Origin: Rhodospirillaceae bacterium
GTDB lineage: Bacteria > Pseudomonadota > Alphaproteobacteria > SP197
Direction: 5' to 3'
Assembly (NCBI GenBank): GCA_002722885.1
Contig: PBNE01000002.1
Location: 258,278-322,277, forward strand
Length of the DNA stretch: 64,000 nt
Shown here: positions 2,707 through 20,703 of the stretch, piece by piece
How positions within the stretch are numbered: the stretch's first letter is position 1
How the letters are laid out: the number at the start of each line of letters is the position of its first letter
Notes under the pieces: generated by a model
What the model saw: the letters and a program-made list of their open reading frames with translations, nothing else
Database searches by the model: none
What the model was told of the DNA's origin: nothing
Program-made: the position numbers and the translations under genes

Positions 2707-3408
2707 TCAGCCGGCCAACGCCCTCACAGCGTCCAGTCCCACGGCGCGGCCGTCGAACTCGGCCATCGCGTCAGTCAGGCATTCCCACATGTAAACGATG
2801 GACGCGCTGTCGAGCACCATATCCAGCGCATAGGTATCGCCGCGGTCGTTGCGGATCAGGATGGCGTTCATGCGCGCCACGCTGGTCTGAGCGATCTGGT
2901 GATTGGCAAAACGATGGGTCCGAAGATCGATGCCGCACATCTTGGCCATCATCTCCGGCACGCGGCTGCCGGTGATGGCGATCCGGGTGTTGGTGTCCGA
3001 ACGCGGCACGGGGAAGCAGACTGCACCCTCCATGGTCCAGGCGGCGGCCAGCTTGTCGATGGTCGCGCTATCGGCGTTGTCTCCGGAAACAAGCAGGAGC
3101 TCGCCACCGGAGAGCCGGCAGGCCAGCGTGCCGTCGCCCTGGATCAGGGCCTCGTTGGGCTCCGGCAGGTCGACGCCCTGGCCCGTGGCCCAGCCGGCCA
3201 TGTCCCAGCCCTTGTAGCCGGCGCGCGGCAGGGCCGTCAGATCGGCGATGCCGAGCGCGGCGGCGGCCGAAGTCTCACCGGCCGCGTCGCCATAGTGTTC
3301 AGGGCAGGCAAAGCCGTTCACGTCGGTCCACTGCGCGCCAAGCGCGGTCGAGACACGATAAAGGTTGGAACGGCGGATGCGGTCCGTGGGCTGCAATGAG
3401 TCAGGCAT
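2707..3408 (-). CDS. mgdD: N-methylglutamate dehydrogenase subunit D / sarcosine oxidase gamma subunit
   Basis: GcvT-like folate-binding fold (LGIADLT, AKMCGIDLR, AQTSVAR); last subunit gene of the four-subunit operon. Confidence 0.8.
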   Translation of the reverse strand: MPDSLQPTDRIRRSNLYRVSTALGAQWTDVNGFACPEHYGDAAGETSAAAALGIADLTALPRAGYKGWDMAGWATGQGVDLPEPNEALIQGDGTLACRLSGGELLLVSGDNADSATIDKLAAAWTMEGAVCFPVPRSDTNTRIAITGSRVPEMMAKMCGIDLRTHRFANHQIAQTSVARMNAILIRNDRGDTYALDMVLDSASIVYMWECLTDAMAEFDGRAVGLDAVRALAG

Positions 3409-3417
3409 GATGGGTCC

Positions 3418-6363
3418 TCAAAGCTCCTGTCGGGCGTTGTCGGGGTCAAAGAACGGCAGCGGGACGACCGTGCAGCCGACCATGTCGCCGGTGTTGATGG
3501 CGACCTTCTTGCCTTTCATCTGGCCGGAGTTCACGCGAACCTGGAACCGGGTCCCCACTTCGGCCCGATCGGCGCCGACGTAGGCAAGCCCTATCACCTT
3601 GTCGAGCGTCGGCGAGTAACTGCACGAGGTGACGCGGCCGGTGATGTCGCCGTCCTTGATCACCAGATGACATTCCTTGGGCATGGTCGCACCGGCATCA
3701 AGTTCAAAGCCGACCAGCTTGCGGTCAAGCATGTCGCGCTGGATCTCGATCGAGCGCTTGCCGATGAAGAACGGACGCTTCTTGGCCAGCGCCCAATCCA
3801 TATCGGCTTCCAGCGGATTGGTCAGGCCGTCGGTGTCCTGGCTGACGATGATGTGGCCCTTCTCGAGGCGCAGCAGTCGCTGGCACTCGACACCGAACGG
3901 CTTGATCCCGTGCTCGGCGCCGGCCTCCATCAGAGCATCCCACAGCGCCTCGCCGGAGTGGGCGGGACAGTGGATTTCAAAACCGAGCTCACCGACGAAG
4001 CCGACCCGCAGCAAACGGCACGGAATGCCAGCCACGGTCGCCATGCGGACGCCCATGTAGGAGAACCCTTCGGCCGAGAGATCCTCATCGGTCAGCTTGG
4101 CCAGAACCTCTCGGGACTTCGGACCAGCGATGTTCACGCCACTGAAGGAACCGGTCACATTGGTGACGTCGACCTTCAGACGCCACTGGGCGTTCCAGAA
4201 CAGCATCTCCTTGTAGACGCCGTCGACGCCCGAGGTGGTAGCGGTGACATAGAAGTGGTTGTCATCGAAACGGCAGGCAACACCGTCGTCGGTGATGACA
4301 CCGGTCATGTCGGTCATCAGCGTGTAGCGCGCACGACCGACCTGCTGCTTCTTGTAGGCCCAAGTGTACATACGCTCCATCATCTCGGCCGCATCCGGGC
4401 CGCGAATCTCAAGACCGCCCAGGGTCGAAACATCGATCAGGCCGACGTTCTCGCGCACATTCCGCGCCTCGGCATGGATCGCCGCGTTACGGTCCGATCC
4501 GAGGTTGTAGACCTCCGGGCGATACCACAGACCCGCCAGCATCAGATTGGCGCCGGCTTCGGCGTGGCGATGATGCATTGCAGTGTAGCGTTTCGGCTCG
4601 AAGCTGCGGCCGGCCAGCACACCGATCTTCTCGGCAGTGTAGGGCGGACGCTGTGTGGTCATGCCCGCTTCGTTGACGCTGAGCTCGTTAGCCCTGGCAT
4701 TGAGACGAATCGCATTAAGCCAGGAGTGGCGACCCTGGCTGGGGCCCATGCCGCAGGTCGAGAACCGCTTCATCAGCTCGATGTGAGCATAGCCTTCCTT
4801 GACCGCGTTGTTGAGGTCGTGGATCTGCAGGTCCTCGTCGAAGTCGACGAAATCCTTGGCCTTGGCGTGCTCGAACATCGGCCAGGGATGGTTCTGGCCC
4901 TGCTCGCCCTTGTCGTTGCGCACCGAGGGAATCGCCCCCTTGGTGAAGCCGGCGTCCTTGGCGGCAGACCAGCCCGCGGCGCGGCCCTGCTCGATCACGG
5001 TGTCGAGCAGGAAGCAGCTCGCCACCGAACCCGCGGCATGCATGCCCGCGGGCAGCTCAGCGATCTCGAACATTGACGTCGCGTCGTTGTAGGGCGTCTG
5101 GCCGCCAGCATGCCAGATCAGGTTGGCCGACGGCTGCCATCCGATCGAGGTGATGATCGTGTCGCAGTCGAAGGTGTCGTGGCGGTCAGCGACGCGGCCT
5201 TCGCCCGTGATCCTGGCGACGCGGGCGCCTTCGACACCGTTGAGATGCGGCTTGGCCATGGCCTCATAGACCGTGGCGCCAACCGAGATCGGCACGCCAT
5301 GATCGGCCACCGCATCAGCCAGCTCGTGCTGGGGCCGTTCGCTGGAGAGATCGGCGACACAGGCAACATCGACACCCGCGGCGATCAGATCAAGCGCGGT
5401 GGCATAGCCGTCAGGATTGGCCGTGGCGATCACCGCCCGGTTACCAGGCTTCACGCCGTGGCGGTTCATCAGGCGCTGGGCCGCCGATCCGTACATGACG
5501 CCGGGCAGATCGTTGTTGCGGAACACCAGAGGCTGCTCGTAGCTGCCTGTCGCCACAACGACCGACTTGGCCCGCAGCTTGAACATGCGGGTGCCCTGTA
5601 TGACCGGCAGGAAGTGATCAGTGAACCAGCCGTTGCAGTAGGCACCGGCCAGAACGCGGATGTTCTCTTTGGCTTCGACCGCCTTGATCAGGTTCTCGTG
5701 CTCCTTTGCAGCGCGCTGGCCCTCGGCGTCGAAGCGGGCATAGGTCAGCGACCCGCCGAGACTGGGGTTCTCCTCGATCAGGATCACTTCGATGTCATCG
5801 GCGGTTTCGGCGGCCTCAAGCGCGGCGGCCATTCCGGCGGGGCCGCCGCCGACCACCACGACATCGGCCCAGAGGTACTGCTTGTCGAAGTAACCGTGGG
5901 GTGCATCGAGATTGACAGTGCCCAGGCCCGCCATGCGGCGGATGATCGGCTCCCAATACTTCCAGGCGCCCTTCGGCTTGAAGAACGCCTTGTAGTAGAA
6001 GCCGACCGGCATGAACTTGCCGAACTTGTCGAGCATCTGGGCGCGGTCGTGATCGACGCTGCCGAAGGTGTTCTGTGCGGTGACCGCCATGCCTTCTTCG
6101 ATCAGACGTGTGTCGGCGACCACGTTCGCCTCATCACCGACCTGGACCAGGCTGTTGGCGTCATGGCCGGCTGCCGACAACGTGGCGCGCGGGCGGTGAT
6201 ACTTGAACGAACGTGAGATGATTTTCACGTCCTCGGCCCACAGCGCGCTAGTGATGGTATCGCCAGCGAAGCCAGTCCGGGCCTTGCCGTCGAAGGTGAA
6301 GTTGATCGGGTTGGAACGGTCGATCAGCGAGCCGTGCGGTGCATCGAGACGGTTGCGTGCCAT
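3418..6363 (-). CDS. mgdC: N-methylglutamate dehydrogenase subunit C / sarcosine oxidase alpha subunit
   Basis: SRSFKYHRPR, VVGGGPAG, GMGPSQGRHS, DVSTLGG and C-terminal GcvT domain (RVGFVGELGFEIH, LRLEKGH); 981 aa. Confidence 0.9.
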   Translation of the reverse strand: MARNRLDAPHGSLIDRSNPINFTFDGKARTGFAGDTITSALWAEDVKIISRSFKYHRPRATLSAAGHDANSLVQVGDEANVVADTRLIEEGMAVTAQNTFGSVDHDRAQMLDKFGKFMPVGFYYKAFFKPKGAWKYWEPIIRRMAGLGTVNLDAPHGYFDKQYLWADVVVVGGGPAGMAAALEAAETADDIEVILIEENPSLGGSLTYARFDAEGQRAAKEHENLIKAVEAKENIRVLAGAYCNGWFTDHFLPVIQGTRMFKLRAKSVVVATGSYEQPLVFRNNDLPGVMYGSAAQRLMNRHGVKPGNRAVIATANPDGYATALDLIAAGVDVACVADLSSERPQHELADAVADHGVPISVGATVYEAMAKPHLNGVEGARVARITGEGRVADRHDTFDCDTIITSIGWQPSANLIWHAGGQTPYNDATSMFEIAELPAGMHAAGSVASCFLLDTVIEQGRAAGWSAAKDAGFTKGAIPSVRNDKGEQGQNHPWPMFEHAKAKDFVDFDEDLQIHDLNNAVKEGYAHIELMKRFSTCGMGPSQGRHSWLNAIRLNARANELSVNEAGMTTQRPPYTAEKIGVLAGRSFEPKRYTAMHHRHAEAGANLMLAGLWYRPEVYNLGSDRNAAIHAEARNVRENVGLIDVSTLGGLEIRGPDAAEMMERMYTWAYKKQQVGRARYTLMTDMTGVITDDGVACRFDDNHFYVTATTSGVDGVYKEMLFWNAQWRLKVDVTNVTGSFSGVNIAGPKSREVLAKLTDEDLSAEGFSYMGVRMATVAGIPCRLLRVGFVGELGFEIHCPAHSGEALWDALMEAGAEHGIKPFGVECQRLLRLEKGHIIVSQDTDGLTNPLEADMDWALAKKRPFFIGKRSIEIQRDMLDRKLVGFELDAGATMPKECHLVIKDGDITGRVTSCSYSPTLDKVIGLAYVGADRAEVGTRFQVRVNSGQMKGKKVAINTGDMVGCTVVPLPFFDPDNARQEL

Positions 6364-6369
6364 GAAGGT

Positions 6370-6663
6370 TTACTCCTTCGTCTCAGGTGCGGTGAACTCG
6401 ACGCGATCCTTGTAGACGTCGCTCGCCGCGTAGGTTTTCAGAATCTCGTCGGACCGGGTGTCACGTTCGGCGATGAACCAGAAGGCGGTGGGCGTGTGAT
6501 ACCACCATTCGCGCACCACACCTGCCGTGTTGTTCTCCAGATAGACGTAGTCAATCCAGGTCTCGTTGTCGCAATCAGGCGCGGGCAGGTCCGCAACTTC
6601 GCCACCATAGGCGAACTCGGAAATGTTCCGCGGACCATTGAGAGGGCAGGGCATGATCTTCAT
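6370..6663 (-). CDS. mgdB: N-methylglutamate dehydrogenase subunit B / sarcosine oxidase delta subunit
   Basis: Start reassigned to ATG 6663 (GGGAG upstream): MKIMPCPLNGPRNISEFAYGGE...EWWYH...WFIAERDT. Confidence 0.88.
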   Translation of the reverse strand: MKIMPCPLNGPRNISEFAYGGEVADLPAPDCDNETWIDYVYLENNTAGVVREWWYHTPTAFWFIAERDTRSDEILKTYAASDVYKDRVEFTAPETKE

Positions 6664-6700
6664 AGGCAAACTCCCATGAAACGGGATTCGGAAATAACGG

Positions 6701-7129
6701 TCATAACAGGACCAACAGGACACAGAGCATCGCGGAGATCATCACAGCCGACATCTTGATGGCCGTATGAGATTGATCCCCCGAGATCCAAGTGGCATCG
6801 CTGTCGGTCTGCTCGACCAGCAAGGCGTCGCGTGCTTCGGCTTCGAATGCTGCCGGGACCGAGATGATGCGCCGGCGATAACGCACCAGGTCGGAACACG
6901 AACGATGAAGGAAGTGAAGAAAGGTCGCCATCACGATGAGCACCAGCGCGGCAAAGGCGATGTCGCTGCCTGTCCGATGACCGAAGTAGTCGTCGATCAC
7001 CACAACCGCCGCAAAGAGCAACAGCGAGTAGTTCACGTAGTTGAACTGCATCTCCTTGACGAAACGCACATTGGCCATGGTTTCGGTGAAACCGGCCAGA
7101 ATCTGGCTGTTGGCTGGTTCGTCCGTCAT
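6701..7129 (-). CDS. Small hypothetical membrane protein inside the mgd operon
   Basis: 142 aa, about three hydrophobic segments, fills the gap between beta and delta subunit genes; no family recognised. Confidence 0.6.
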   Translation of the reverse strand: MTDEPANSQILAGFTETMANVRFVKEMQFNYVNYSLLLFAAVVVIDDYFGHRTGSDIAFAALVLIVMATFLHFLHRSCSDLVRYRRRIISVPAAFEAEARDALLVEQTDSDATWISGDQSHTAIKMSAVMISAMLCVLLVLL

Positions 7130-7137
7130 TGCTGATC

Positions 7138-8394
7138 TCAGTGGCCGACACTGGCGGCACCCTTTTCACCGACCAGTTTGAAGTCGTGATAACGCTGCAG
7201 CGCGAAGGGTGCGATGGTCTCAGGCACCTTACCGGTGGCAAGCATCTCGGCGTTGCGCTTGCCGCAGACCGGCGTGGCCTTAAAGCCCCAGGTGCCCCAG
7301 CCTGCATCGATGTAATAGTTGTCGACCGGCGTCTCGCCCATGATCGGGGCGAAGTCCGGCGTCATGTCGGTCATACCGGCCCACTGGCGCAGGAGTTTCA
7401 CCTCGCCGATGTAAGGCAGTAGTTCCATCATGTGCATCATCAGACCCTCCTTGAAGTCGAGGGTCGAACGGGTCTGGTAGACACCATAGGGATCGGTCGA
7501 ACCGCCCATGACCAGCTCGCCGCGCGAGGACTGGCTGACATAGACGTGCAGGCTGCCCGACACGACGATGGCGTCGAGAAACGGCTTGAGCGGCTGGCTC
7601 ACACAGGCCTGCAAGGGAATGGTCTTGAGCGGCAGCTTGAAGCCCGCCATGTCCGAGACCACGCCCGACATGCCGGCGACGCACTGGATCACCTTGCCCG
7701 CCTTGATCGTGCCGCGCGTGGTCTTCACGCCGGCCACCTTGCGCGGGCTGCCGTTCGCCTTGGTGATCTCGAAGCCGGTCACTTCGGTCTTTTGGTGGAT
7801 GTGCACGCCCCGCTTGGCGGCACCGGCGCCATAGCCCCAGGCCACCGCATCATGGCGCGCAATGGCGCCGGGCTGGTGATAGAGCGCACCCATGATCGGA
7901 TAACGAACGTCTTCGGAGTAGTTCAGCTCCGGCACCAGCTTCATGAGGTCGTCGCGCAGCACCAGTTCGGACTGGATGCCGAAGTGCTTGTTGACCTCGG
8001 CGCGCCAGCGCATCGTCCGGACCGCGCTGTCGGTGTGGGCCAGCGTGTAGTGACCACGCTCCGAATACATGAGATTCATGTCGAAGTCGTTGGCGAGGTC
8101 CTTATAGAGGTTCACCGACTCGTCGTAGAACTTCACGCCTTCGGGCGTCAGGTAGTTCGAGCGGATGATGGTGGTGTTCCGGCCGGTGTTGCCGCCGCCG
8201 ATGTAACCCTTGTCGAGCACCGCGACATTGGTGATGCCGTGGTCGACCGCTAGGTAGTAGGCCGTCGCGAGGCCGTGGCCACCGCCGCCCACGATCACGA
8301 TGTCATAGGAGTCCTTGAGGTCCCTGGCGCCGGGCAGCGCACGGGGCACAGGATGACCCTTGTTGAGACCGAATTTTAGCAATCCGAACGGCAT
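7138..8394 (-). CDS. mgdA: N-methylglutamate dehydrogenase subunit A / sarcosine oxidase beta subunit
   Basis: MPFGLLKFGL N-terminus, GGGGHGLATAYYLA, GGGNTGRNTTIIRSNY, IARHDAVAWGY, GWGTWGFKATP, AASVGH C-terminus. Confidence 0.88.
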   Translation of the reverse strand: MPFGLLKFGLNKGHPVPRALPGARDLKDSYDIVIVGGGGHGLATAYYLAVDHGITNVAVLDKGYIGGGNTGRNTTIIRSNYLTPEGVKFYDESVNLYKDLANDFDMNLMYSERGHYTLAHTDSAVRTMRWRAEVNKHFGIQSELVLRDDLMKLVPELNYSEDVRYPIMGALYHQPGAIARHDAVAWGYGAGAAKRGVHIHQKTEVTGFEITKANGSPRKVAGVKTTRGTIKAGKVIQCVAGMSGVVSDMAGFKLPLKTIPLQACVSQPLKPFLDAIVVSGSLHVYVSQSSRGELVMGGSTDPYGVYQTRSTLDFKEGLMMHMMELLPYIGEVKLLRQWAGMTDMTPDFAPIMGETPVDNYYIDAGWGTWGFKATPVCGKRNAEMLATGKVPETIAPFALQRYHDFKLVGEKGAASVGH

Positions 8395-8657
8395 GAAAAC
8401 TCTCCCGGCACGGGCATGAGGCGCAGGGCGGACGTGGCACGTGACACCAGCAACCGACCATTACGAAGCGATCTGCGGTTTAGACCAGCACCGCGTGGCT
8501 GTCCATGCTGCGCAGAACCTTTTTTGGACCAAATCCATACCAAATTCATCCAATAAGAACCGTAGGCGCGGCCACCTGCCCTCATGTTGCCGCGATCATG
8601 AAACAGACAGAATGCTGCTCTTGAACCGACCCCTCAAAGACGCGACAAGGCTCCATC

Positions 8658-9596
8658 ATGCTGCGTTTCCTTGCCACCCTTCTGATCGTCGCCCTGACGC
8701 TTGTGCATCCCGCCCTTGCTGACATCGACGCCGACATCCAGGCAGCCGATCTGTCGGCGCAATCAGGTGACTTCGAGGGATCCCGCGCGATCCTGACCCG
8801 ACTGATCGAATCCGGCGAGCTTGATGCCGAGCGCCAGGCCGTGATGCTGCACAGCCGCGGCACCATCGAGCAGATTCTCGGCAACCCCGAAGCAGCGATC
8901 GAGGATTTCAACAGGGCTATCACACTCTCGGCGACCTACACTGATGCGCTCTACAACAGGGGTGTGGCCCTGATGGCGGTGGGCCGGCCGGCTGATGCCG
9001 CCAATGATTTCGCCGCCGTGTTGCGCGAGGAGCCCGATGCCGTCGATGCCTATGCCGTTCTGGCCGAAGCCCAGCTTGAGATGGGCCTGCTGGATCAGGC
9101 CGTGGCCAACCTCGACCACGCCCTAGCCCTGGCGCCGGGCGAAGGTTTCCTGCTGGTCGCGCGTGCCCATGCCCGTCGCCTGAACGGCGACATGACGGGC
9201 GCGATCATCGACTACGACAACGCGCTCGCCTACTTCGGAGCCGACCCTCAGATCTATTTCGAGCGTGGCCGCACACGGTATGCCGATGGAGACCAGTCCG
9301 GCGCGCTGGAGGACCTCAACCGTGCCCTGGAGCTCGATCCCCTATGGGTCGAACCGATGATCGAGCGAGCCTTTCTGTTCATGGATTACGGCGAGATCAG
9401 TCTTGCACTGGCCGATTTCAACGATGTTCTGGCCCGTTCACCCGAGCATCCTCTGGCTCTGTTCGGCCGTGCTGTGGCCCACGCCGAAACCGGCGACATC
9501 GCCGCCGCCGACGAGGATTTCATGATGGCCTATGCCATGGGCATGAGCCACCCGATCCTCGACGAACGCCTGCGCGAACTCGGTGTGATCGAGTAA
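8658..9596 (+). CDS. Secreted tetratricopeptide repeat protein
   Basis: Signal peptide ending ALA-D; repeated AIEDFNRAI / ALEDLNRALELDP TPR units. Confidence 0.85.
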   Translation: MLRFLATLLIVALTLVHPALADIDADIQAADLSAQSGDFEGSRAILTRLIESGELDAERQAVMLHSRGTIEQILGNPEAAIEDFNRAITLSATYTDALYNRGVALMAVGRPADAANDFAAVLREEPDAVDAYAVLAEAQLEMGLLDQAVANLDHALALAPGEGFLLVARAHARRLNGDMTGAIIDYDNALAYFGADPQIYFERGRTRYADGDQSGALEDLNRALELDPLWVEPMIERAFLFMDYGEISLALADFNDVLARSPEHPLALFGRAVAHAETGDIAAADEDFMMAYAMGMSHPILDERLRELGVIE

Positions 9597-9601
9597 ATCT
9601 G

Positions 9602-9639
9602 CATCATTTTTGCAAAGTATCTTGTTTGCAAAAATGATG
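9602..9639. promoter_or_regulatory. Perfect 15-bp AT-rich inverted repeat overlapping a candidate sigma70 promoter
   Basis: CATCATTTTTGCAAA-gtatcttg-TTTGCAAAAATGATG; contains TTGCAA(9610-9615)-N17-AATGAT(9633-9638). Confidence 0.65.
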
Positions 9640-9680
9640 ATGGCTTCATCATCCTTCGCAACAAAGGAGGCAATCTCAGG

Positions 9681-10679
9681 ATGGGCACGTCAGCCGAAAA
9701 CGTGGTGAGAGAGGCGGGAGCACCGGGCAATGCGCCGCTTGCCGGCCGTACCTTTGTGGTCACCGGCGCGGGCCGCGGCCTGTGTGTGGCCTTTGCGATG
9801 GTGTTTGCCGATGCCGGCGCCGACCTGTTGTTGACCGGCCGCGACCTCGGTCATCTGGAAGCGGTGCGCGTTACCGTGGGCCGGCGGAGCGGAAGAACCG
9901 CCACGATCACAGCCCTCGATCTGGCCGATCCGTTGAATGCAGCAAAGAAGATGCGCAGCCTCGCCCATACCTCTCCGGGGATTGACGGTCTGATCAACAG
10001 CGGAGCGGCATGGCAATCAGGAGCCTTGCTGGACCACGAAAACGCTGAAATTGCCGGCGTGATCGCCTCTCACATTGCCGGCACACTCCTGGTGACCCGC
10101 TCACTCGCGCCGGCACTTCTCACCGCTCCCCGCGGGGATGTGGTTAACATCGTCTCGATCTCGGGATTACCCAACACCCCGCTCTCGGGCGCCTCACCGG
10201 CCTTCCATGCCGGCAAGCACGGACAGGCCGAGCTGAGTGATGCACTGCGTCAGAGCTTTGCCCGCAGCAGCTTCCGCGTCACGGCTCTCTATCCACCTGA
10301 CCTCGACACCATGACTCCTGAGGACGACGCTTGGCACTTGACGCCGACACAGGCGGTCTCATCCCTGACAACAACAGCACAACCGCCTAACCGTCCCGTC
10401 AAACTGTCCTACATGTTCCACTCGCGCGGCACGAAGAGGCCATCGGCGGCGAACCGTGTCTTGGCATCGGGATCGTCGTGCAACACCTCGCCGAGGCGAC
10501 GCATCACCAGGCCAAACGAGCTCTGGGTCCAGTACCAGCGCCGAATCGCAAAGGGTGCATCGCCGCTCCGATGGGCCGCGGTCTGTGAGAAGGCGTCGGT
10601 CAGATCCTGCGAACCATGCTTGATTACAAAGGCCCGCTCGCGCTTGGGAATGTTGTCGGTGGGGCCTTCCAGCAGATAA
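9681..10679 (+). pseudogene. SDR family oxidoreductase, probably degenerate with lost 3' end
   Basis: VVTGAGRGL and AFHAGKH motifs; SDR similarity fades near 10340 and the frame runs about 270 nt into the convergent gene ending at 10409. Confidence 0.55.
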
Positions 10680-11602
10680 GATACAAATATCTCACCCAGC
10701 TCTTCGAGCGACCGGCCCACCAGACCGAAGGTCGACCAGCCGTGCGCACGGGTCGCTTCGGCATGGAGCGGCGCCAGGGCGGCGAGGTCATACCGGAACC
10801 GGTTGACAAGCTCAGCATCGGAAACGGTGTCCTCGACCGGCTCGATATACCAGGACGGCGACCATGTCTCAGGATCGGCCGTCGGCGGCGGCTCCTCTTC
10901 ATAAGTCTCCAGGACGAGTCCGGTCGGGCGGCCCAGAAGATCGAGAGCCGCGCGCAGCACACGCGTCTGCAGCGCCGGATTGTTCGGCGCACCGAAAGTG
11001 CGGCCATACCAGTAGGGCACCCAGATCGCGCGCGGCGGCTTCTGGCCTTCGGCATGGCGATACACCAGCGCGACCAGCGTGGTCGCAAGGCCTGCCCGTT
11101 CGAACACATGTGCCAACACGCTCACGGCGCGCGTACACGCGGGTCAGACCGGGGCCAGAACCACCGTGTTGACGCCCTCGGCCTTCATGGCCGCTATCGC
11201 CGATTCGGCATGGGGCAGAAACTTCTCTGGGGCGCTGGAGCCCCCCATAAACGAATAGTGTGTCGGCGCCAGGGACCCCAGAACACCCTCATCAACCAGC
11301 TCGTTGAGACGGTCGAAGGGCAGGTAGAGATTGCGGTCCTGCATGAAGCCGCTCCGATCGAAGTTGGTCGAAGCATGGCTGACGCGAAAGCTCTGCTGGT
11401 CACTGGAAAAGCTGCGCCAGTCGTGATCGTTCCAGGCGAAGGGTTTGTCGTCAGGCTTGTGGACGCCCGCCGACGACACCAGAGCCACGCGCCGTTCCTT
11501 CGGCGGCGGGGGTGTCACCCAGGGCTGGTCGTCGAACGCGACGAACCCGTAGTTGGCGAATGAGGTTCGGGACACCTCACTCAAATCACTCCATCTGACC
11601 AC
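10409..11602 (-). CDS. Predicted selenoprotein, glycine/sarcosine/betaine/D-proline reductase selenoprotein B (PrdB/GrdB-like) family, Sec at TGA 11146-11144, 397 aa
   Basis: GAGGAG RBS then GTG 11602. RVALVSSAG, DRNLYLPFDRLNELVDEG, HYSFMG, then VVLAPV-TGA-PACTRAVSVLAHVFERAGLAT...KPPRAIWVP in one frame. UxxC motif and downstream hairpin. Confidence 0.85.
11096..11127 (-). promoter_or_regulatory. Candidate bacterial SECIS element
   Basis: mRNA CCGU-GAGC-GUGU-[UGGC]-ACAU-(GU)-GUUC-(GA)-ACGG, folded by eye; apical loop starts 29 nt after UGA with G at loop position 2. Confidence 0.55.
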
Positions 11603-11656
11603 GGTCTCACTCCTCTCAATCGCGACAACTCTAGAGGTGCCTGAGGCTGTGGCAAC

Positions 11657-12595
11657 TCACGTTCGCGAGGACCGTCTCCAGCGTGGCAGCTTGCCCTCGA
11701 GCGCGAGGATGCTGACGATCACAAGGCCCGCACCGGCAAGCTGTTCGAGGCTCATGCGTTCACCGAGCAGGAGGGCGGCAAGACCGAGAGTCGCCACGGG
11801 ACCGACGGTGGATATGAGCGCCGAGCGGGATGCCCCGACACGCCGGATGCCTTCGGTCACCAGCAGGAACGGCACGACCGAACAGAAGACCGCCATCGCC
11901 AGGATCATGGCAAAGGCCGGCCAGCCGGTCGCCAGGGAATCCAGCGGCGTGGTCACCAGAAAATGCCCGTCGATGCCCAGGGTGGCGCCGGCAACCGCTG
12001 CGAGCGCCATCCGCGCACTGCCCAGCCTGGGACCCAACGCCTGGTTCACCATGAAGTAGAGCGAAAACGCAAAGGCCGAGGCAATGGCGTAGAGCCCGCC
12101 TTCGAGGTTGACAAAGAACACACGTGCGTCGGTGATGCCCATAACCATGAGGATCCCGGCCTCGGCAAGCAGCAGCGCGATGGTCTGACGTCGCGGCGGC
12201 AAACGTCTGCGGCGCAGGCTGTCGAGCAGCAGCACGAACACCGGGAAGCTGAACAGAAGCACGCGCTCGACCGAGACATCGATCAGTTCGAGTGCGGTGA
12301 AGTCGAGAAGGCCTGCGATGTAGTAACCCATCAGCCCGCCAGCCATCCCGATGGCGAAATCACGCCATGGCATCCTCAGGGCAGAGAAGCTTCCTTTCAG
12401 AATCAGGGCGATGCCCACAAGCATGGGCAGGGTGAGGCTGTAGCGAATTGCCAGCAGAGTCGCGACATCAACGCCTTCGGCGAAGATGTACTTGGCGAGA
12501 ATGCCTTTGAGCGATAGCGCCAGGGCCGAGGTGATGACACAGGCGATCCCGATCAGCTCGCGCCGCCGGTCCTCCGGTTCTGCAACCGAGACCAC
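11657..12595 (-). CDS. DMT/EamA family transporter
   Basis: About 10 hydrophobic helices, two EamA halves, GIRRVGASRSAL and LLLGERMS motifs. Confidence 0.88.
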   Translation of the reverse strand: MVSVAEPEDRRRELIGIACVITSALALSLKGILAKYIFAEGVDVATLLAIRYSLTLPMLVGIALILKGSFSALRMPWRDFAIGMAGGLMGYYIAGLLDFTALELIDVSVERVLLFSFPVFVLLLDSLRRRRLPPRRQTIALLLAEAGILMVMGITDARVFFVNLEGGLYAIASAFAFSLYFMVNQALGPRLGSARMALAAVAGATLGIDGHFLVTTPLDSLATGWPAFAMILAMAVFCSVVPFLLVTEGIRRVGASRSALISTVGPVATLGLAALLLGERMSLEQLAGAGLVIVSILALEGKLPRWRRSSRT

Positions 12596-12596
12596 G

Positions 12597-12971
12597 CTAA
12601 GTGGCGATCAGCGGCCCGAGATTCTTGCCCGCCAGAATATGAACGTGAAAGTGCGGGACCAGCTGTCCACTCGCGGTACCCTGATTGGCGATCAGGCGGT
12701 GGCCCTCGGCAGCTACACCGAGGTCGCTGCAAATGGCCGTGACCGCGCGCCAGAACGCGACAATCTCCTCGTCGCTGGCATCGCGATGGAAATCGTCATG
12801 GGCGATGTAGCGACCCTTGGGGATGACCAGGACATGAACCGGCGCCTGCGGCGCAATATCGTTGAAGGCCAGAACATGCTCGTCCTCGTAGACGGTGGTG
12901 TTCGGCAGCTCCCCGAGAAGGATCTTTGCGAAGATGTTGTCGTCGTCATAGGTCTCGAAATCCATGGTCAT
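12597..12971 (-). CDS. hinT: HIT family nucleotide-binding protein (HinT-like)
   Basis: NIFAKIL, AFNDIAPQAPVHVLVIPK, HFHVH histidine triad. Confidence 0.9.
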   Translation of the reverse strand: MTMDFETYDDDNIFAKILLGELPNTTVYEDEHVLAFNDIAPQAPVHVLVIPKGRYIAHDDFHRDASDEEIVAFWRAVTAICSDLGVAAEGHRLIANQGTASGQLVPHFHVHILAGKNLGPLIAT

Positions 12972-13039
12972 GGCCCAGTCCTCAGCTCACGCCCTGTCCA
13001 TACCCCGGAACGTCGCGGGGAGTCACGGGCATGTCGACG

Positions 13040-13873
13040 TCACAGAATTCCGAGAGGCTGCTTCGACGACGGTGGCGGAAAGGCACGGTCGAGGGCGGCA
13101 AGGTCGTCTTCATCAAGTTCGAGGCGGGCCGCGTCATGGTTCGCGGTGATGTGTTCAGGATGGGACGCTTTGGGGATTGCAATGAGATCATCACGGCGCA
13201 GGACCCAGGCTAGCATGATCTGTGCGGCTGTTACGCCGTGACGCTGCGCTACAGGGTCGAGTTCCAGATGACCGACACGACGCCCCTGTTCCAGCGGCGA
13301 ATAGGCCATCGCCGGCAGGCTTCGGCCCTTCATCCATGGCAGGAGATCATACTCGGGCCCGCGCCGGGTGATGTTGTAAAGAATTTGGTTGGTGGCGCAG
13401 GCACTGCCGCCCGGCGCCTGCCACATCTCCTTCATGTCGGCCGTGTCGAAGTTCGACACGCCCCAGCGCAGAATCATGCCGTCGGCCACCAGTTGCTGAA
13501 ACCCGGAAATGGTCTCGGCGATGGGTGTGCTGCCCGGCCAATGAAGAAGATAAAGGTCGATCCGATCGGTCCCCAGCCGCCACAGGCTGCGCTCACAGGC
13601 GTCGATGACGCCCTGGCGCGTGGCGTTGTGCGGATAGACCTTGGAGACGATGAACGCCTCGTCACGCCGCCCTGCCAGAGCCTTGCCGACAATCTCCTCG
13701 GCACCACCCTCGCCATACATCTCCGCGGTGTCGATCAGTGTCATGCCGAGATCGAGCGCCCGGCCGACCGCTGCGATCTCGCGCGAAGCCTCGGACGCAA
13801 CCTCTCCCATACGCCAGGTCCCGAATCCCAACTGCGGAACCGCGGTGCCGTCGGGGAGTGAAACAGTTTTCAT
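13040..13873 (-). CDS. Aldo/keto reductase
   Basis: LGFGTWRMG, IDTAEMYG, IDLYLLHWP, WGVSNF, AYSPL, AIPKAS; start set at ATG 13873. Confidence 0.92.
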   Translation of the reverse strand: MKTVSLPDGTAVPQLGFGTWRMGEVASEASREIAAVGRALDLGMTLIDTAEMYGEGGAEEIVGKALAGRRDEAFIVSKVYPHNATRQGVIDACERSLWRLGTDRIDLYLLHWPGSTPIAETISGFQQLVADGMILRWGVSNFDTADMKEMWQAPGGSACATNQILYNITRRGPEYDLLPWMKGRSLPAMAYSPLEQGRRVGHLELDPVAQRHGVTAAQIMLAWVLRRDDLIAIPKASHPEHITANHDAARLELDEDDLAALDRAFPPPSSKQPLGIL

Positions 13874-14074
13874 GAAAGGTTCCGCTGCTGACCGTCCCAA
13901 GGATGACTGCAGTGGCTTGACGTGTCACGCAGCGTCGAGCGTATAGCCGGCCGAGCGAACCGGTCAGAATCAGAACCGCAAAACCCAGGGCTTCGGCCCC
14001 GAACAAGGGAGCAAGCAGCCGCAGCCCCACCCGTTTCAGGGCGCGGCGTGCATCAAGGCCGCCGACCGGCACGG

Positions 14075-16327
14075 TCAGATGTCGACCGCGGCGAGCGCCG
14101 CCATGTTCATGAGGTCGTTCACTGTGGCGCCCAGCCGGACAATCTGCACAGGCTTCTCGAGCCCCATCAAAATCGGACCGATGACATGCGCCCCGCCCAT
14201 CGCCTCAACCAGCTTGTAGGAGATGTTGGCCGTGTGGAGATTGGGCATCACCAGCACGTTGGCGGTGCCGCTGATCCCGGCGAAGGGATAGTAGGCGAGC
14301 GCTTCGGGCTCCAGCGCCGTGTCGGGGCCCATCTCGCCATCGAACTCGAAGTTCACGCCGCGCTCGGTGAGGATTTCGATGGCTCCGCACAGGTTCTTCG
14401 TTTGTGACGCGCCCCGGCTGCCGAAGTTCGAGAACGACATCAGAGCCACCCGGGGCTCGACACCGAAGCGCCGCACCTTCTCAGCGGCCTGCACCGTGAT
14501 GTCGGCCAGCTGTTCGGCTGTGGGGTCCTCGTTGATCGTGGTGTCGGCAACAAAGATGGTGTGGTGGTCGGACACCAGGATCGACATGCCGCAGATGATT
14601 TCGCCCGGCTTGGCGTCGAGCACGCGGCGCACATTGTTCACCGCGCCCGCATAGCTGCGCGTCAGTCCGGTCACCATGGCATCAGCCTCGCCGCCCGCCA
14701 GAAGGGCCGCTGCAAACACGTTGCGATCAAGGTTGATCCAGCGCTGGCAGTCCCGCAGTAACGCGCCCTTGCGCTGCATGCGTGCATAGACGAGCTCCAC
14801 GAACTGGTCGCGGTTTTCCATCTTGGCGGCGTTGGCAATCTGGATGCCGACCGGGCTGACACCCAGCGATTCCATACGCTCGAAGATGCGCTCCTCGCGG
14901 CCGACCAGAATGGCGGTCCCCATGGACTGATCGCGCCAGAGGGCCGCCGCACGAATGGTCTTTTCCTCTTCACCCTCGGTGAAGACGATGCGGCCCTGTT
15001 TGGCGCGCGCGACTTCGAACACGTCGTACATGTGGCCCGCGACGGGCGAGAGCCGGCCCGTGAGCTGGGCGCGGTAGCCGTCCATATCGATGATAGGGCG
15101 GCGGGCCACGCCGGAATCCATGGCCGCCTTGGCAACGGCCGGCGGCACCTTGCTGAGCAGGCGCGGATCGAAGGGCTTGGGAATGATGTAATCGGGCCCG
15201 AACTGCAGGTGCCCGCCGGTGTAGGCCGAGGCAACCTCGTCGGGCACATCCTCACGCGCCAGCGAGGCGATGGCCTCGGCTGCAGCAATCTTCATGGCAT
15301 CGTTGATCGTCGTCGCACGAACATCGAGCGCGCCACGGAAGATGTAGGGGAAACCCAGCACGTTGTTGACCTGGTTCGGATAGTCCGAACGGCCGGTCGC
15401 AATGATGCCGTCCTCACGCACCTCCAGAACCGCTTCGGGCGTGATCTCTGGATCGGGATTGGCCATTGCGAAGATGATCGGCTTGTCGGCCATCGAGGCG
15501 ACCATCTCGCGGGTTACGGCATCCTTGACCGAAACACCCAGGAAAATGTCGGCGCCTTCCATGGCTTCGGCCAGCGTTCGTGCCTCGGTCGGCACGGCAT
15601 GAGCCGACTTCCACTGGTTCATGCCCTCTTCGCGGCCATGGAACACGACACCCTTGGAATCGCAAAGCAGCGCATTCTCATGCGGCAGACCATGCGCCTT
15701 GATCAGCTCCAGGCAGGCGATGCCGGCAGCGCCGGCGCCGTTCACCACGACCTTGCAGTCCTTGATATCCTTGTTTGCGATCTCGAGCGCATTGATCACA
15801 CCCGCCATGCAGATGATTGCGGTGCCGTGCTGGTCGTCATGGAAGATCGGGATGTCGACCAGCTCGCGCAGGCGCTGCTCGATGATGAAACACTCCGGCG
15901 CCTTGATATCCTCCAGGTTCACGCCCCCGAAGGTGGGGCTGATCAGCCGCACCGTGTTGATGATCTCGTCGACATCCTCGCTGTCGATCTCGATGTCGAT
16001 ACCGTCGACATCAGCAAAACGCTTGAACAGCACCGCCTTGCCTTCCATGACGGGCTTGGCGCCCAGGGCTCCGAGATTGCCGAGGCCAAGCACGGCCGTG
16101 CCGTTTGACACGATCGCAACGACATTGCCCTTCGAGGTGTAGTCGAAGACACAGGCCGGGTTGCGATGAATCTCAAGGCATGGCGCGGCCACACCCGGCG
16201 AATAGGCGAGCGAGAGATCGCGCGCCGTGTCGAGCGGTTTGGTCGGCGCAATCGCCAGCTTGCCGGGCCGCCCCTCGGCGTGAAACTGCAGGGCCTCCAC
16301 ATCGGAGACCTTCACTTGGTCGGACAT
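14075..16327 (-). CDS. maeB: NADP-dependent malic enzyme with phosphotransacetylase-like domain
   Basis: DLSLAYSPGVA, KPVMEGKAVLFK, NLEDIKAPECF, HDDQHGTA, TGRSDYPNQVNN; 750 aa. Confidence 0.95.
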   Translation of the reverse strand: MSDQVKVSDVEALQFHAEGRPGKLAIAPTKPLDTARDLSLAYSPGVAAPCLEIHRNPACVFDYTSKGNVVAIVSNGTAVLGLGNLGALGAKPVMEGKAVLFKRFADVDGIDIEIDSEDVDEIINTVRLISPTFGGVNLEDIKAPECFIIEQRLRELVDIPIFHDDQHGTAIICMAGVINALEIANKDIKDCKVVVNGAGAAGIACLELIKAHGLPHENALLCDSKGVVFHGREEGMNQWKSAHAVPTEARTLAEAMEGADIFLGVSVKDAVTREMVASMADKPIIFAMANPDPEITPEAVLEVREDGIIATGRSDYPNQVNNVLGFPYIFRGALDVRATTINDAMKIAAAEAIASLAREDVPDEVASAYTGGHLQFGPDYIIPKPFDPRLLSKVPPAVAKAAMDSGVARRPIIDMDGYRAQLTGRLSPVAGHMYDVFEVARAKQGRIVFTEGEEEKTIRAAALWRDQSMGTAILVGREERIFERMESLGVSPVGIQIANAAKMENRDQFVELVYARMQRKGALLRDCQRWINLDRNVFAAALLAGGEADAMVTGLTRSYAGAVNNVRRVLDAKPGEIICGMSILVSDHHTIFVADTTINEDPTAEQLADITVQAAEKVRRFGVEPRVALMSFSNFGSRGASQTKNLCGAIEILTERGVNFEFDGEMGPDTALEPEALAYYPFAGISGTANVLVMPNLHTANISYKLVEAMGGAHVIGPILMGLEKPVQIVRLGATVNDLMNMAALAAVDI

Positions 16328-16511
16328 TCTTGTTGTTCCTTGGTGTCGTGAACCAGCGTAGTCGGGCGAGCGCCGGGGTCAAAGCGAAGATGCCATGACA
16401 CGACATGCCTCATCTAATCCACCGTTTCCACTCCTTGCCCATGTGGTCGCGGTTGCAGACCTGATCAATTGCAACCACCGTGCGCTTCGGCTTTCGCTCA
16501 GGAGATGACGC

Positions 16512-16804
16512 ATGGCGCTTGCCCGATCCGTTGATCCCGACGTCGCGCGCATTCGCGACCGCATGGCGTCCTCGCCGGTCACCGACTCCGTGGCCAAGGA
16601 CATCTGCACCTGCAACTCGTGGCGCCGCGATCCCGAACCGCGCCTGCACACCCCGATCATCACCAATCGCTGTTCATCGTGAACCACCATGTCACTCACC
16701 TACCTGCCGACGGCTCCGTCTACTTCACGGACACGCGCGGCTATCACACCGCGCTCAACGGCGGCGATGTACGGGCCCATCTGGTTGCCGCGCTGGTCGA
16801 CTGA
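16512..16804 (+). pseudogene. Relic of an aspartyl/asparaginyl beta-hydroxylase-like (2OG-Fe) gene
   Basis: AGGAG RBS and ATG 16512 give ...CNSWRRDPEPRLHTPIITN; after a frameshift near 16667 it reads SLFIVNHHVTHLPADGSVYFTDTRGYHTALNGG...HLVAAL. Too short for an intact enzyme. Confidence 0.6.
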
Positions 16805-16816
16805 AAGAGAGTTCTT

Positions 16817-17884
16817 ATGTCCCAGGCATCCGCCTATCCCGGATCATCGTCGGGCACTGTCAACCGGCCCGACGCCGTGGACCTCCGGAGCGACACGGTC
16901 ACCCGGCCCGATGCCGACATGCGCCAGGCCATGGCCGAGGCAGAAGTGGGTGATGATGTCTACGGCGACGATCCCAGTGTGAACGCCCTGGAGGCTCATG
17001 TTGCCGGGATGATGGGCAAGGAGGCAGCGGTTTTCTGTACCTCCGGCACCCAAAGCAATCTCTCGGCGATTCTGGCCCATTGCCAGCGCGGCGAGGAGCT
17101 GATCGCCGGAGCAGGTTATCACGTCCTGGTCGCCGAGGCCGGTGGCAGCTCTGCTCTGGGCGGCATTGTGCACTGCGCCCTGCCCGTCGGCGATGACGGC
17201 GGCCTCGATCCCGTCGATGTCGAAGCTGCAATTAAACCCGATGATGTGCACTACCCCGTCAGCCGGCTGCTCTGCCTGGAGAATACGATGGGCGGTCGGG
17301 CTCAGACCGAGGCGCGCCTGAAGGCGGCCTCCACCGTGGCCCGGCGCCACAGGTTGAGCGTGCACCTCGACGGCGCGCGCCTGATGAACGCGGTCACGGC
17401 CCTGGGCACGTCGCCGGCCGACTTCGCGCGCCATGCCGACACGGTGTCGCTCTGTCTCTCGAAGGGCTTGGGCGCACCCTGCGGCACGGTTCTGTCCGGT
17501 CCGGTCGATATCATCACGAACGCACGCCGCCAGCGTAAACTGCTGGGTGGATCCATGCGTCAGGCCGGGATTCTGGCCGCCGCCGCGCTACATGCGCTCA
17601 ACCACAATGTTGAGCGCATGACCGAGGATCACGCCAACGCGCGCCGCCTTGCCGAGGCGCTCTCCAACCTACCCGGGGTGACGGTCGATCTCGACGCCTG
17701 CCAGACGAACATGGTGTTTGCCACCCTTCCCGAAGACGGCTGGCAGGCTGCGCTAGCCCGCGTGGGGGATGCAGGAATCATCACCGCGCAGCATTCCCGC
17801 CACCTGCGTCTGGTCTGCCACAAGGACGTCAGCAGCGACGGCGTCGAGCGTACCATCAAGGCTTTTCAACAGGCCTTCACCTGA
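16817..17884 (+). CDS. ltaE: Low-specificity L-threonine aldolase
   Basis: DLRSDTVTRP, VGDDVYGDDP, SGTQSN, HLDGARL, CLSKGLGAP. Confidence 0.93.
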   Translation: MSQASAYPGSSSGTVNRPDAVDLRSDTVTRPDADMRQAMAEAEVGDDVYGDDPSVNALEAHVAGMMGKEAAVFCTSGTQSNLSAILAHCQRGEELIAGAGYHVLVAEAGGSSALGGIVHCALPVGDDGGLDPVDVEAAIKPDDVHYPVSRLLCLENTMGGRAQTEARLKAASTVARRHRLSVHLDGARLMNAVTALGTSPADFARHADTVSLCLSKGLGAPCGTVLSGPVDIITNARRQRKLLGGSMRQAGILAAAALHALNHNVERMTEDHANARRLAEALSNLPGVTVDLDACQTNMVFATLPEDGWQAALARVGDAGIITAQHSRHLRLVCHKDVSSDGVERTIKAFQQAFT

Positions 17885-17964
17885 ACCGGCGTGAAGCTGC
17901 CGCAGCGGGCGCCATCCTGTGATAGCGTTGGCCCCGAATCAGACCCATCACGGATGACCATCCC

Positions 17965-20703
17965 GTGTCCGAAGACGCCGGCACAGGCATGACCGAAACC
18001 ACGGATCCCGACCGGGATTCCGATGCTGCCGCGCGCGCCGACACCAAGCACGCGAAGAAACCGGGCACCAGCCAGATGACGCCGATGATGGCGCAGTACT
18101 GGCAGATCAAACGCGAGAACCCGTCGACCCTGCTGTTCTTCCGCATGGGCGATTTCTATGAGCTGTTTTTCGACGATGCCGTGAAGGCCGCCGCCGCGCT
18201 CGACATTGCCCTGACCAAACGCGGCAAGCACCTGGGCGAGGACGTCCAGATGTGCGGCGTGCCGGTGCATACCGCCGAAACCTATCTGGAGCGCCTGATC
18301 CGACACGGCTTCAAGGTGGCGATCTGTGAGCAGATGGAAGACCCGGCCGAAGCCAAGAATCGCGGCTCGAAGTCGGTCGTGAAGCGCGATGTCACCCGCA
18401 TCGTCACGCCGGGAACAATCACCGAAGACAACCTGCTCGACGCCCGCCGCGCCAATCATCTTGCCGCGCTGGCCCGCGCCCAGGGCGGCATGGCCGTAGC
18501 CTGGATCGAGATGTCGACCGGCGCCTTTGCCGTGGAGGCTGTCGACAGTGCAGGCCTGGCCGCCCTGCTTGAGCGCATCGATCCCGCTGAGCTGGTGCTG
18601 TCCGAGGCGCTCTTCGATGATGACGAGCTCACTGACGTGCTGGACGACCTGCGCGAGCGGCTGTCGCCGGAAGCGGCCGCACGGTTCCACAGCCGCACCG
18701 CCGAACGGCGCCTGAAGGAGCTCTTCGGTGTCGCATCGCTCGACGCCTTCGGCAGCTTCGGGCGGGCCGAGCTCGCGGCGATGGGCGGGCTGATCACCTA
18801 TCTCGAACTCACTCAGAAAGGCCGCGTGCCACGCCTTGCGCCGCCGCGCCCGATGGCTGCCGGCCAGACCATGGCGATCGATGCTGCGACCCGTCGCAAT
18901 CTCGAAATCATGCAGGCGCTCGATGGCTCGCGCCGTGCCAGCCTGCTGGGCGTCATGGACCGCACGGTGACAGGCGCAGGTGCACGCCTGTTGGGCCAGC
19001 GCCTTTCGGCGCCGCTCACCGATACCGCCGCCATTGTCAGGCGGCACGAAGCCGTCACATTGCTGGTCGAAGACCGCGCCCTGCGCGAAGGCCTGCGGGC
19101 CATGCTGGCCCAGGCCCCCGATCTGGAACGCGCGCTGGGGCGGCTTGCGCTGGGGCGGGGCGGCCCGCGCGATCTCGTGGCCATCCGTGATGGTCTCAAG
19201 GCCGGCGACGCCATGGCCAGTCACCTTGCGGGCGTGGCGCACCTGCCCGACGAGCTGCGCGATGCGACGGGCCGTCTGGGAACTCTGCCCGAGCTCGTCG
19301 ACCTCCTGTTGCACGCACTGGTCGACGAACCTCCGCTTCTGGCGCGCGACGGCGGGTTCGTGCGCCCGGGCCATGACGAGGCCGTCGACGAAGCCAAGAC
19401 GTTGCGGGACGACAGTCGCAAGCACATCGCTGCCTTGCAGTCGCGCTACCAGGACGAGACCGGCGTCACCAGTCTGAAGGTCCGGCACAACAACGTGCTG
19501 GGCTACTACGTCGAAACGACCCAGGTTCATGCCGACAAGCTGGACCGCGAGGTCTTCATTCACCGCCAGACCATGGCGAACGCCATGCGCTTCACCACCG
19601 TGGAGCTCGGCGAGCTCGAATCGAAGATTGCCCGTGCCGCCGACCGCGCCACGGCCGGCGAACTGGAGATCTTCAACAACCTCGTCGACAGCGTGCTGGC
19701 TGAGGGCATGACGATCGCCGCGTCAGCCTCGGCGCTCGCCACCATCGATGTCGCCTCGGGCCTCGCTGAACTCGCCGCCGAGCGCGGCTACATCAGGCCC
19801 CAGATCACCGCCGATCTCGACTTCACCATCGAGGGCGGCCGCCATCCCGTGGTCGAGGCTCTGGCCGATCCGGCTGCCGGTCAGGCTTTTGTCGCCAACG
19901 ACTGCCGACTCGAAGACGACCAACGCCTGTGGCTGCTGACCGGCCCCAACATGGCGGGCAAGTCGACCTTCCTGCGCCAGAACGCCCTGATCGCGATCAT
20001 GGCGCAGATGGGAAGCTTCGTGCCTGCGGCCACGGCACGGATCGGTGTTATCGACCGCCTGTTCAGCCGTGTCGGCGCAGCGGACGATCTGGCGCGCGGC
20101 CGCTCCACCTTCATGGTCGAGATGGTCGAGACGGCTGCGATCCTGAATCAGGCGAGCCGGCGGGCGCTTGTGATCCTTGACGAAATCGGCCGTGGCACGG
20201 CGACCTTTGACGGGCTTTCCATCGCCTGGGCAACTTTGGAGCATCTCCACGAACAGAACGGTTGCCGTGCGCTCTTCGCCACGCACTACCACGAGCTCAC
20301 GGCCCTTGCCGCACGCCTCGACACCCTCAAGCCCCACACCATGCGGGTGAAGGAATGGCAGGACGACATCGTCTTTCTTTATGAGGTCGGACCGGGCGCC
20401 GCCGACCGCAGCTACGGCATTCATGTCGCCCAGCTTGCCGGTCTGCCGGCCGCCGTAATCCGACGCGCCGAAGAGGTGCTCAAGACCATTGAGTCCGGAG
20501 AACAGGGCAGCGCGCTGGTTCGTCTGGCCGATGACCTGCCGCTGTTCCAGGCCGCGGCTCTCCAGCCCGAACCCGTAACGGCGGCCTCCGCCGATTCGGC
20601 GTTGCAGGACGCCGTCGCCGCCATCTCACCCGACGAGCTGACGCCGCGCGAAGCGCTGGACCTGATCTATCGCCTCAAGGATCTCGCGGAGGACAAGACG
20701 TGA
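17965..20703 (+). CDS. mutS: DNA mismatch repair protein MutS
   Basis: [54 protein letters not shown]; alternative start ATG 17989. Confidence 0.98.

Follow-up and report, generated by a model that had tools for sequence, protein, structure and literature searches.

A TGA-interrupted PrdB-like gene of a marine alphaproteobacterium that very probably encodes a single 397-residue selenoprotein

Does a TGA codon that separates two adjacent open reading frames (ORFs) end a protein, or does it specify selenocysteine (Sec)? The question is raised by a locus in a 64,000-nt stretch of DNA from a Rhodospirillaceae bacterium (assembly GCA_002722885.1, contig PBNE01000002.1, positions 258,278 to 322,277), which we call the window. 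On the minus strand of the window a 152-amino acid (aa) ORF (11602..11144) stops at a TGA (11146-11144), and a 238-aa ORF (11125..10409) opens at a GTG (11125-11123) in the identical frame. A sequence-only reading of this DNA had proposed that the two ORFs are one gene for a Sec-containing enzyme similar to PrdB of D-proline reductase or GrdB of glycine reductase. The best explanation of all our results is very probably a single selenoprotein gene at 10409-11602 (minus strand) with UGA-153 read as Sec; its product, as predicted from sequence comparisons, would be a stand-alone reductase acting without a pyruvoyl subunit.

Direct reading of the minus strand reproduced the proposed arrangement exactly. 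The TGA is followed by the codons CCC GCG TGT ACG CGC GCC (P-A-C-T-R-A), and the frame of the 238-aa ORF continues six codons past the TGA. Translation with TGA as U yields a single 397-residue product in which U153 is the only recoded codon, with the junction VVLAPV-U-PACTRAVSVLAHVFERAGLAT as described earlier; the motif is U153-P-A-C156 in the context VVLAPV-U-PAC-TRAVSV. The coding sequence (10409..11602, minus strand) begins at a GTG (11602-11600) and ends at a TAG (10411-10409), and is defined by the frame, profile matches, homology across the TGA and a structural model. The two GTG codons also differ in the way that had been reported: a ribosome-binding site (RBS), GAGGAG (11610..11615, minus strand), lies 7 nt 5′ of the upstream GTG, where the starts of orthologues align (MVRM.../VVKW...), and there is no purine-rich RBS ahead of the downstream GTG. 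The codon read as selenocysteine, UGA at 11144..11146, occupies a column of the alignment that holds conserved TGA or TGC, with Cys in database relatives. The TGT codon at 11135..11137 encodes Cys156 of the U-x-x-C motif, which we read as a resolving cysteine; it is placed in the first turn of helix 154-169 in the model and is invariant in an alignment of 39 sequences (A3). Conservation was also seen at H76, S78, D82, R83, R191 and Q212.

Conservation of the TGA was assessed by six-frame searches with the read-through protein. Matches were found in 35 of 61 related genomes, including all 22 of the same genus, and at 55 of the 59 matching places an in-frame TGA was flanked by homologous sequence on either side. 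When 301 genomes sampled evenly across the class were searched, 25 gave matches at E ≤ 1e-20, with TGA at 26 of 31 places and without it at five. Among 40 fetched loci, the motif PV-[U/C]-PxC[TA][CR]A was present in 35, its first position being TGA in 31 and TGC in four (loci L052, L059, L060, L063 and L064, which did not match the pattern, are excluded from this count). Full-length database relatives carry Cys in the U153 column in five of six cases in one set and 31 of 39 in a larger one. The 31 loci with TGA come from a wide range of genera, with protein identities of 27-85%, and conservation extends over the full alignment, on both sides of U153, down to 27% identity, with no frameshifts seen. 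The whole stretch is also covered by independent contigs of metagenomes from other samples, which differ from it at two positions but not at the TGA; in an estuary metagenome (run X7), a contig of a strain ∼97% identical spans the TGA with 22 differences, none of them in the codon. Thus relatives with TGA or Cys aligned at this codon and with homology on both sides do exist, as the sequence-only reading anticipated, and the TGA is not unique to this strain. Judged by sequence comparison, the in-frame TGA pattern is far in excess of chance. Since selenoproteins are typically recognized by alternation of Sec and Cys in one column between conserved flanks, the gene is best taken as a true member of that class.

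Additional stops were seen in a few members of the family. The orthologue in genome G021 (L026, G021:C168) carries another in-frame TGA at about codon 11; one paralogue in genome G007 (G007:C4:226464-227537) has a TAG besides the TGA, and another G007 copy is split in two. All of these may be pseudogenes or assembly errors.

The genome encodes the machinery needed to insert selenocysteine. A search for selA, selB, selC (tRNA-Sec) and selD found all four above curated cut-offs: selA at 561 bits (cut-off 268), selB at 424 bits (cut-off 242), selD at 285 bits (cut-off 125) at the C-terminal end of a Pyr_redox_2-SelD fusion, and tRNA-Sec at 75.3 bits (cut-off 47), which ARAGORN also calls as SeC with anticodon TCA. 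These genes are clustered on the same contig as the window, ∼240 kb away (G000:C2:14556-20041, G000 being the genome under study). The 397-residue Sec enzyme of the sequence-only reading is therefore supported both by the relatives with TGA or Cys and by the presence of the machinery. The host genome is metagenome-assembled (3.71 Mb, 23 contigs, 98.56% complete, 8.66% contamination), and its relatives are marine metagenome-assembled Alphaproteobacteria. It encodes cytochrome oxidase subunit I of the haem-copper oxidase type (545 bits), which fits the aerobic lifestyle that had been suspected. In-frame stops were found in none of the nine molybdopterin-oxidoreductase matches in the genome (L085-L092 and C14:298515-300146); therefore FdhA, the usual bacterial selenoprotein, apparently lacks Sec in this genome, and the Sec machinery may be kept in large part for the PrdB-like genes.

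Within the wider Sec cluster (G000:C2:14556-22900; L072 4497-12904) the order is selA, selB, tRNA-Sec and the 741-aa Pyr_redox_2-SelD fusion. The tRNA-Sec gene sits 37 nt past the selB stop and is not nested. Past the SelD fusion, on the opposite strand, are another PrdB-like selenoprotein gene, with the motif U-P-L-C-T-C, and a gene for an amidohydrolase, with S-Me-THD-like and ABC-transporter genes beyond. Another observation concerns the assembly: a 20.5-kb contig (G000:C17:1-16000; L073) duplicates the window at ∼5000-21000, from soxA to an ORF at 20700, with ∼98-100% protein identity. It holds an identical copy of the selenoprotein gene and probably reflects strain heterogeneity or assembly redundancy.

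A hairpin follows the UGA. In the minimal selenocysteine insertion sequence (SECIS) of E. coli fdhF, a 17-nt stem-loop is located 11 nt past the UGA. The window has a candidate SECIS apical stem-loop at 11116..11132 (minus strand), made of 6 bp and the loop CGUGA, at nt 15-31 from the U of the UGA and behind an 11-nt spacer; a weak lower stem may extend it to 11107..11141, the lower pairs being only partly kept. A gapless alignment of 31 Sec-form sequences (A2) shows the same 6-bp stem with loop CGUGR at nt 15-31. Among these Sec forms, pair 21-37 is GC in 25, AU, UA and GU in one each and unpaired in two; pair 22-36 is CG in 23, UA in five and unpaired in two; three more pairs are nearly invariant. 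The covariation score of the full 14-pair model was 0.191 vs 0.123 ± 0.011 for shuffles (none of 500 reached it), and slid registers gave at most 0.117.

Constraint at the RNA level is also indicated by codon usage. At four-fold sites of 57 conserved codon columns in 27 Sec-form genes, only A159 (GCC in 27 of 27, entropy 0) and V160 (GTG in 26 of 27, entropy 0.23) are nearly frozen, and both fall in the top of the hairpin; elsewhere none of 52 columns has a third-position entropy ≤ 0.25 bits, the minimum being 0.62. (The codon test, like the tree described below, leaves out L026, L042, L048 and L058, which have start or truncation problems.) The GTG called as the start of the 238-aa ORF (11125-11123) is the invariant loop GUG of this hairpin. 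Four Cys forms have other codons at the hairpin positions, and the hairpin is not predicted for them. In the ∼97% identical estuary strain (X7), a plus-strand A>G change at 11116 turns the stem-closing G-U pair into G-C. These data support a conserved hairpin 11 nt past the UGA that is under RNA-level constraint and is a candidate SECIS.

To which family does the read-through protein belong? GRDB (PF07355) is its sole Pfam match, at 30.3 bits vs a gathering threshold of 22 (residues 37-150 on profile positions 226-345 of 347); all 39 aligned family members match GRDB and none matches any other Pfam family. The best NCBIfam match is PrdB (TIGR04483), with residues 35-223 aligned to positions 28-218 of 238 and a score of 118.6 bits vs a cut-off of 300. 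The glycine/sarcosine/betaine reductase models TIGR01917, TIGR01918, NF040794 and NF040795 all score below their curated cut-offs (the four scores being 27.9 vs 602.2 for GrdB, 33 vs 65.45, 41.2 vs 800, and 43.6 vs 775 for GrdH). An AlphaFold2 model computed from the 39-sequence alignment has two domains, with a mean predicted local distance difference test score (pLDDT) of 92.6 and a predicted template modelling score (pTM) of 0.91. In this model an alpha/beta domain (∼38-233) is followed by a helical C-terminal domain of ∼130 residues (262-388) that has no Pfam match; U153 is placed between beta-strand 146-150 and helix 154-169, with C156 one turn later.

The pyruvoyl partners of the reductases were sought as well. 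PF09338, the family of PrdA/GrdE, had no match in the genome itself and none in the 61 related genomes, 35 of which carry the PrdB-like family; its positive control, the only one among these models, scored 350 bits in genome G331. PrdA (TIGR04480) and GrdA (PF04723) had no match in the genome itself, and the best PrdC match there reached only 36.8 bits vs a cut-off of 490. From these searches the PrdB-like protein appears to work without a pyruvoyl subunit. The PrdB/GrdB-like label of the sequence-only reading accordingly held in part: membership in the GRDB superfamily and the best profile match to PrdB stood, and assignment to PrdB or GrdB proper did not, given the failed family cut-offs and the missing PrdA/GrdE. 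Its profile matches and motif make the protein a GRDB-superfamily member, PrdB-like in sequence and motif, outside the proline and glycine reductase systems. Because no pyruvoyl subunit appears to be needed and a helical C-terminal domain has been added to a GRDB-superfamily protein, we read it as a stand-alone Sec/Cys reductase and not as a D-proline or glycine reductase.

In the mechanism that we propose, SelB with Sec-tRNASec would bind the hairpin and insert selenocysteine at UGA-153, whereby translation would continue past residue 152 instead of ending there. By analogy with PrdB and GrdB, the selenol of U153 would then attack the substrate and C156 would resolve the adduct to give a selenenyl-sulfide; its reduction, again by analogy, might fall to a thiol or NAD(P)H system of the cell.

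Three rival explanations have to be weighed against a stand-alone selenoprotein. The protein could be a canonical B subunit of D-proline (or glycine, sarcosine or betaine) reductase that, like those of Stickland fermenters, cleaves C-N bonds reductively together with a pyruvoyl subunit. PrdB is indeed the best family match (TIGR04483, 118.6 bits), U153 lies near U151 of C. difficile PrdB with UxxC present (PMC11229817), and sarcosine oxidase genes and a gene for a beta-eliminating lyase (probably threonine aldolase) are ≤ 8 kb away. However, the scores fall far short of the equivalog cut-offs for PrdB, GrdH and GrdB, and no PrdA/GrdE or GrdA was found in a genome that is 98.56% complete, nor PF09338 in any related genome searched. 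The model of the window protein has an extra C-terminal domain, and Cys forms are common in the family, whereas the U151C variant of PrdB is reported to be inactive (PMC11229817). Since the scores are below cut-off, no pyruvoyl partner was found and a C-terminal domain is added, we consider a canonical D-proline or glycine reductase largely refuted and very unlikely. Slightly less likely again is a split gene in which the TGA is a true stop and a 152-aa protein is accompanied by an independently initiated 238-aa protein. The halves are separate in gene calls and in public databases, and a GTG does occur six codons past the TGA. Yet this GTG is the RBS-less codon that forms the invariant hairpin loop, the six inter-ORF codons, invariant C156 among them, are conserved as protein, and Cys-containing relatives are single chains of ∼370-420 aa. 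Moreover, the Sec machinery is present, and in the model the break would fall within a single domain.

A premature stop due to pseudogene formation, or to an error of assembly or sequencing, might be suspected in a metagenome-assembled genome with 8.66% contamination and a duplicated contig. The same TGA occurs, though, in 31 loci of many genera that differ widely in protein identity (27-85%) and in independent assemblies of other samples, and the alignment is conserved over the whole length with no frameshifts; we regard this explanation as refuted by conservation and scarcely credible. Several results do weigh against a Sec-inserting hairpin and a stand-alone reductase. The fold energy of the window hairpin is no better than that of shuffles (z 0.45; 133 of 200 fold as well), and therefore we relied on comparative evidence. 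The number of pairs changed on both sides is not statistically significant (it was equalled in 142 of 500 shuffles), conservation of the lower stem is poor (pair 15-43, for example, is unpaired in 19 of 30), and Rfam models searched against 10300-11800 with E up to 10 yielded four chance-level matches only and no SECIS family. The conserved T-R-A-V peptide could explain part of the nucleotide conservation, and the four Cys forms used as a contrast all belong to one divergent clade. As for function, the catalytic steps come from analogy alone. A PDB sequence search with the protein gave no match, and the best hit in a Foldseek search of the PDB with the model was photocobilin protein 8j2w (E 3.4e-3, TM-score 0.26); there being no usable structural relative, the fold gave no functional clue. 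Expression data are likewise sparse: an RNA library (X18) yielded one 250-nt contig covering 10689-10935 only, which may be carried-over DNA, and metatranscriptome run X21 contained next to none of the sampled words; neither run is informative on absence of expression.

The single selenoprotein gene preferred here has a relative in the same genome. This paralogue (G000:C2:20267-21331, 39% identity, one TGA) is the gene between the Pyr_redox_2-SelD fusion and the amidohydrolase gene. In a quick maximum-likelihood tree (45 rows, four truncated rows dropped), the window protein and three orthologues (69-85% identity) form a clade with support 100. Its sister is another clade restricted to the genus, and long branches lead to both within the alphaproteobacterial Sec radiation. 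Sec and Cys states interleave in the tree, with five changes by parsimony, of which well-supported branches force at least two. The window copy is a divergent paralogue confined to part of the genus, and the main family copy is the one that adjoins selD in this genome. In the 1.5-kb flanks of the 40 loci, a selD fusion adjoins a family member in nine and an amidohydrolase gene in five; the nine come from several families of the class and the five are those nearest to the genus. Under the tentative idea set out below, such neighbours would hint at a role in the processing of selenium or sulfur compounds that feeds SelD, or in cleaving a nitrogen-containing solute of seawater.

The window copy is set in the gene order sarcosine oxidase genes, tetratricopeptide repeat (TPR) gene, short-chain dehydrogenase/reductase (SDR) gene, selenoprotein gene, EamA and aldo-keto reductase. 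The EamA/DMT-family transporter gene (11657..12595, minus strand; PF00892, 90.5 bits) is located directly upstream with a 54-nt gap, which makes it a possible operon partner. EamA is adjacent to the orthologue in three of four orthologous loci (G003, G021 and G008) and was not found at G018. The SDR ORF (9681-10679, plus strand) overlaps the 3′ end of the selenoprotein gene antisense by 270 nt; it parts from its G003 counterpart beyond residue ∼225, the frames of its orthologues in G018 and G021 are truncated, and gene decay with a frameshift is the probable explanation. Synteny was considered as a functional clue and given little weight, as the order is kept only among the four close orthologues and the SDR gene is decaying. 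Farther away, the sarcosine oxidase cluster, of the heterotetrameric type, encodes SoxA-like (981 aa) and SoxB-like DAO (418 aa) proteins, with small ORFs between and after them. The beta-eliminating lyase and a malic enzyme-PTA fusion are also nearby (the coordinates noted for these and the cluster are 2707-8394, minus strand, and 16817-17884, plus strand). The proximity of these glycine and one-carbon metabolism genes to a gene of GRDB type may be coincidental.

The selenoprotein gene clearly illustrates how automatic annotation still divides such genes in two. Among the 150 best representative database clusters, 23 end at residue 151 or 152 and 85 begin at residue 155 or later, so that 108 are halves; close relatives of the 238-aa piece in public protein collections are unnamed or called ‘hypothetical protein’. 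Correct annotation matters for counts of the selenoproteome in marine genomes. A weightier point is that a family reported among the most abundant selenoproteins of oxic seawater bears the name of an enzyme of anaerobic Stickland metabolism, although the obligatory partner of that enzyme was found in none of the 61 genomes searched. We put forward, as a tentative idea that may well prove wrong, that the marine ‘PrdB’ proteins are not proline reductases and instead form a separate family of two domains, one alpha/beta and GRDB-like and one helical and C-terminal, performing Sec-dependent reductive chemistry without a pyruvoyl subunit in oxygen-respiring Alphaproteobacteria. If this were true, the divergent paralogue in the window, beside its EamA transporter gene, would be a neofunctionalised copy.

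How does this gene compare with known systems? In D-proline reductase the selenol of PrdB attacks the alpha-carbon of pyruvoyl-bound proline, the pyruvoyl subunit PrdA is needed and PrdC regenerates the enzyme (PMC11229817). The window protein resembles PrdB of Clostridium sticklandii and Clostridioides difficile in its best profile match (TIGR04483), its UxxC motif and the position of its Sec, U153 here corresponding approximately to U151 there (PMC11229817). It differs in that no PrdA was found, the PrdC match is weak, the score is under the family cut-off and Cys forms are frequent; also, PrdB is a protein of ∼25.7 kDa that needs PrdA, PrdH and PrdC (PMC11229817), whereas the window protein has 397 aa with an added helical domain. 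With GrdB, GrdF and GrdH it shares the GRDB domain just upstream of Sec and the UxxC motif; unlike them, it matches only the C-terminal third of the ∼435-aa GrdB profile, scores 28-44 bits vs 602-800 and comes without any GrdA or GrdE that could be found.

A further likeness is to the ‘PrdB’ of ocean surveys. In the Sargasso Sea data of 2005, ‘proline reductase PrdB’ with UxxC ranked third in abundance among the known selenoprotein families; its 42 Sec sequences had all been annotated wrongly, as truncated proteins (PMC1088965). The Global Ocean Sampling (GOS) study of 2008 listed 235 Sec and 110 Cys sequences for the PrdB family (pfam07355) (PMC2398784), a marine survey of 2021 assigned 6.4% of marine selenoprotein genes to PrdB (PMC9402790), and recent reviews give PrdB and GrdB as UxxC selenoproteins (PMC13188914, PMC9312934). 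As far as these sources go, UxxC ‘PrdB’ was already among the most abundant selenoprotein families of oxic surface seawater, and the surprise that the sequence-only reading attached to such an enzyme in an aerobic alphaproteobacterium was overrated. The survey proteins were named by homology, and neither the missing PrdA nor the C-terminal domain is discussed in the accessible parts of those papers; we found no literature on orphan marine PrdB (without PrdA) or on ‘PrdB-like’ proteins. The window gene shares with the survey ‘PrdB’ the Sec in UxxC, PF07355, a marine origin, many Sec forms with a smaller number of Cys forms, and mis-annotation as truncated proteins, to the extent that the surveys describe them. 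It is likely that the survey ‘PrdB’ is this same two-domain, ∼400-aa family, a likeness drawn from the descriptions and not from the sequences. The UxxC marine PrdB-like kind is already known, and the gene in the window is an additional member of that kind.

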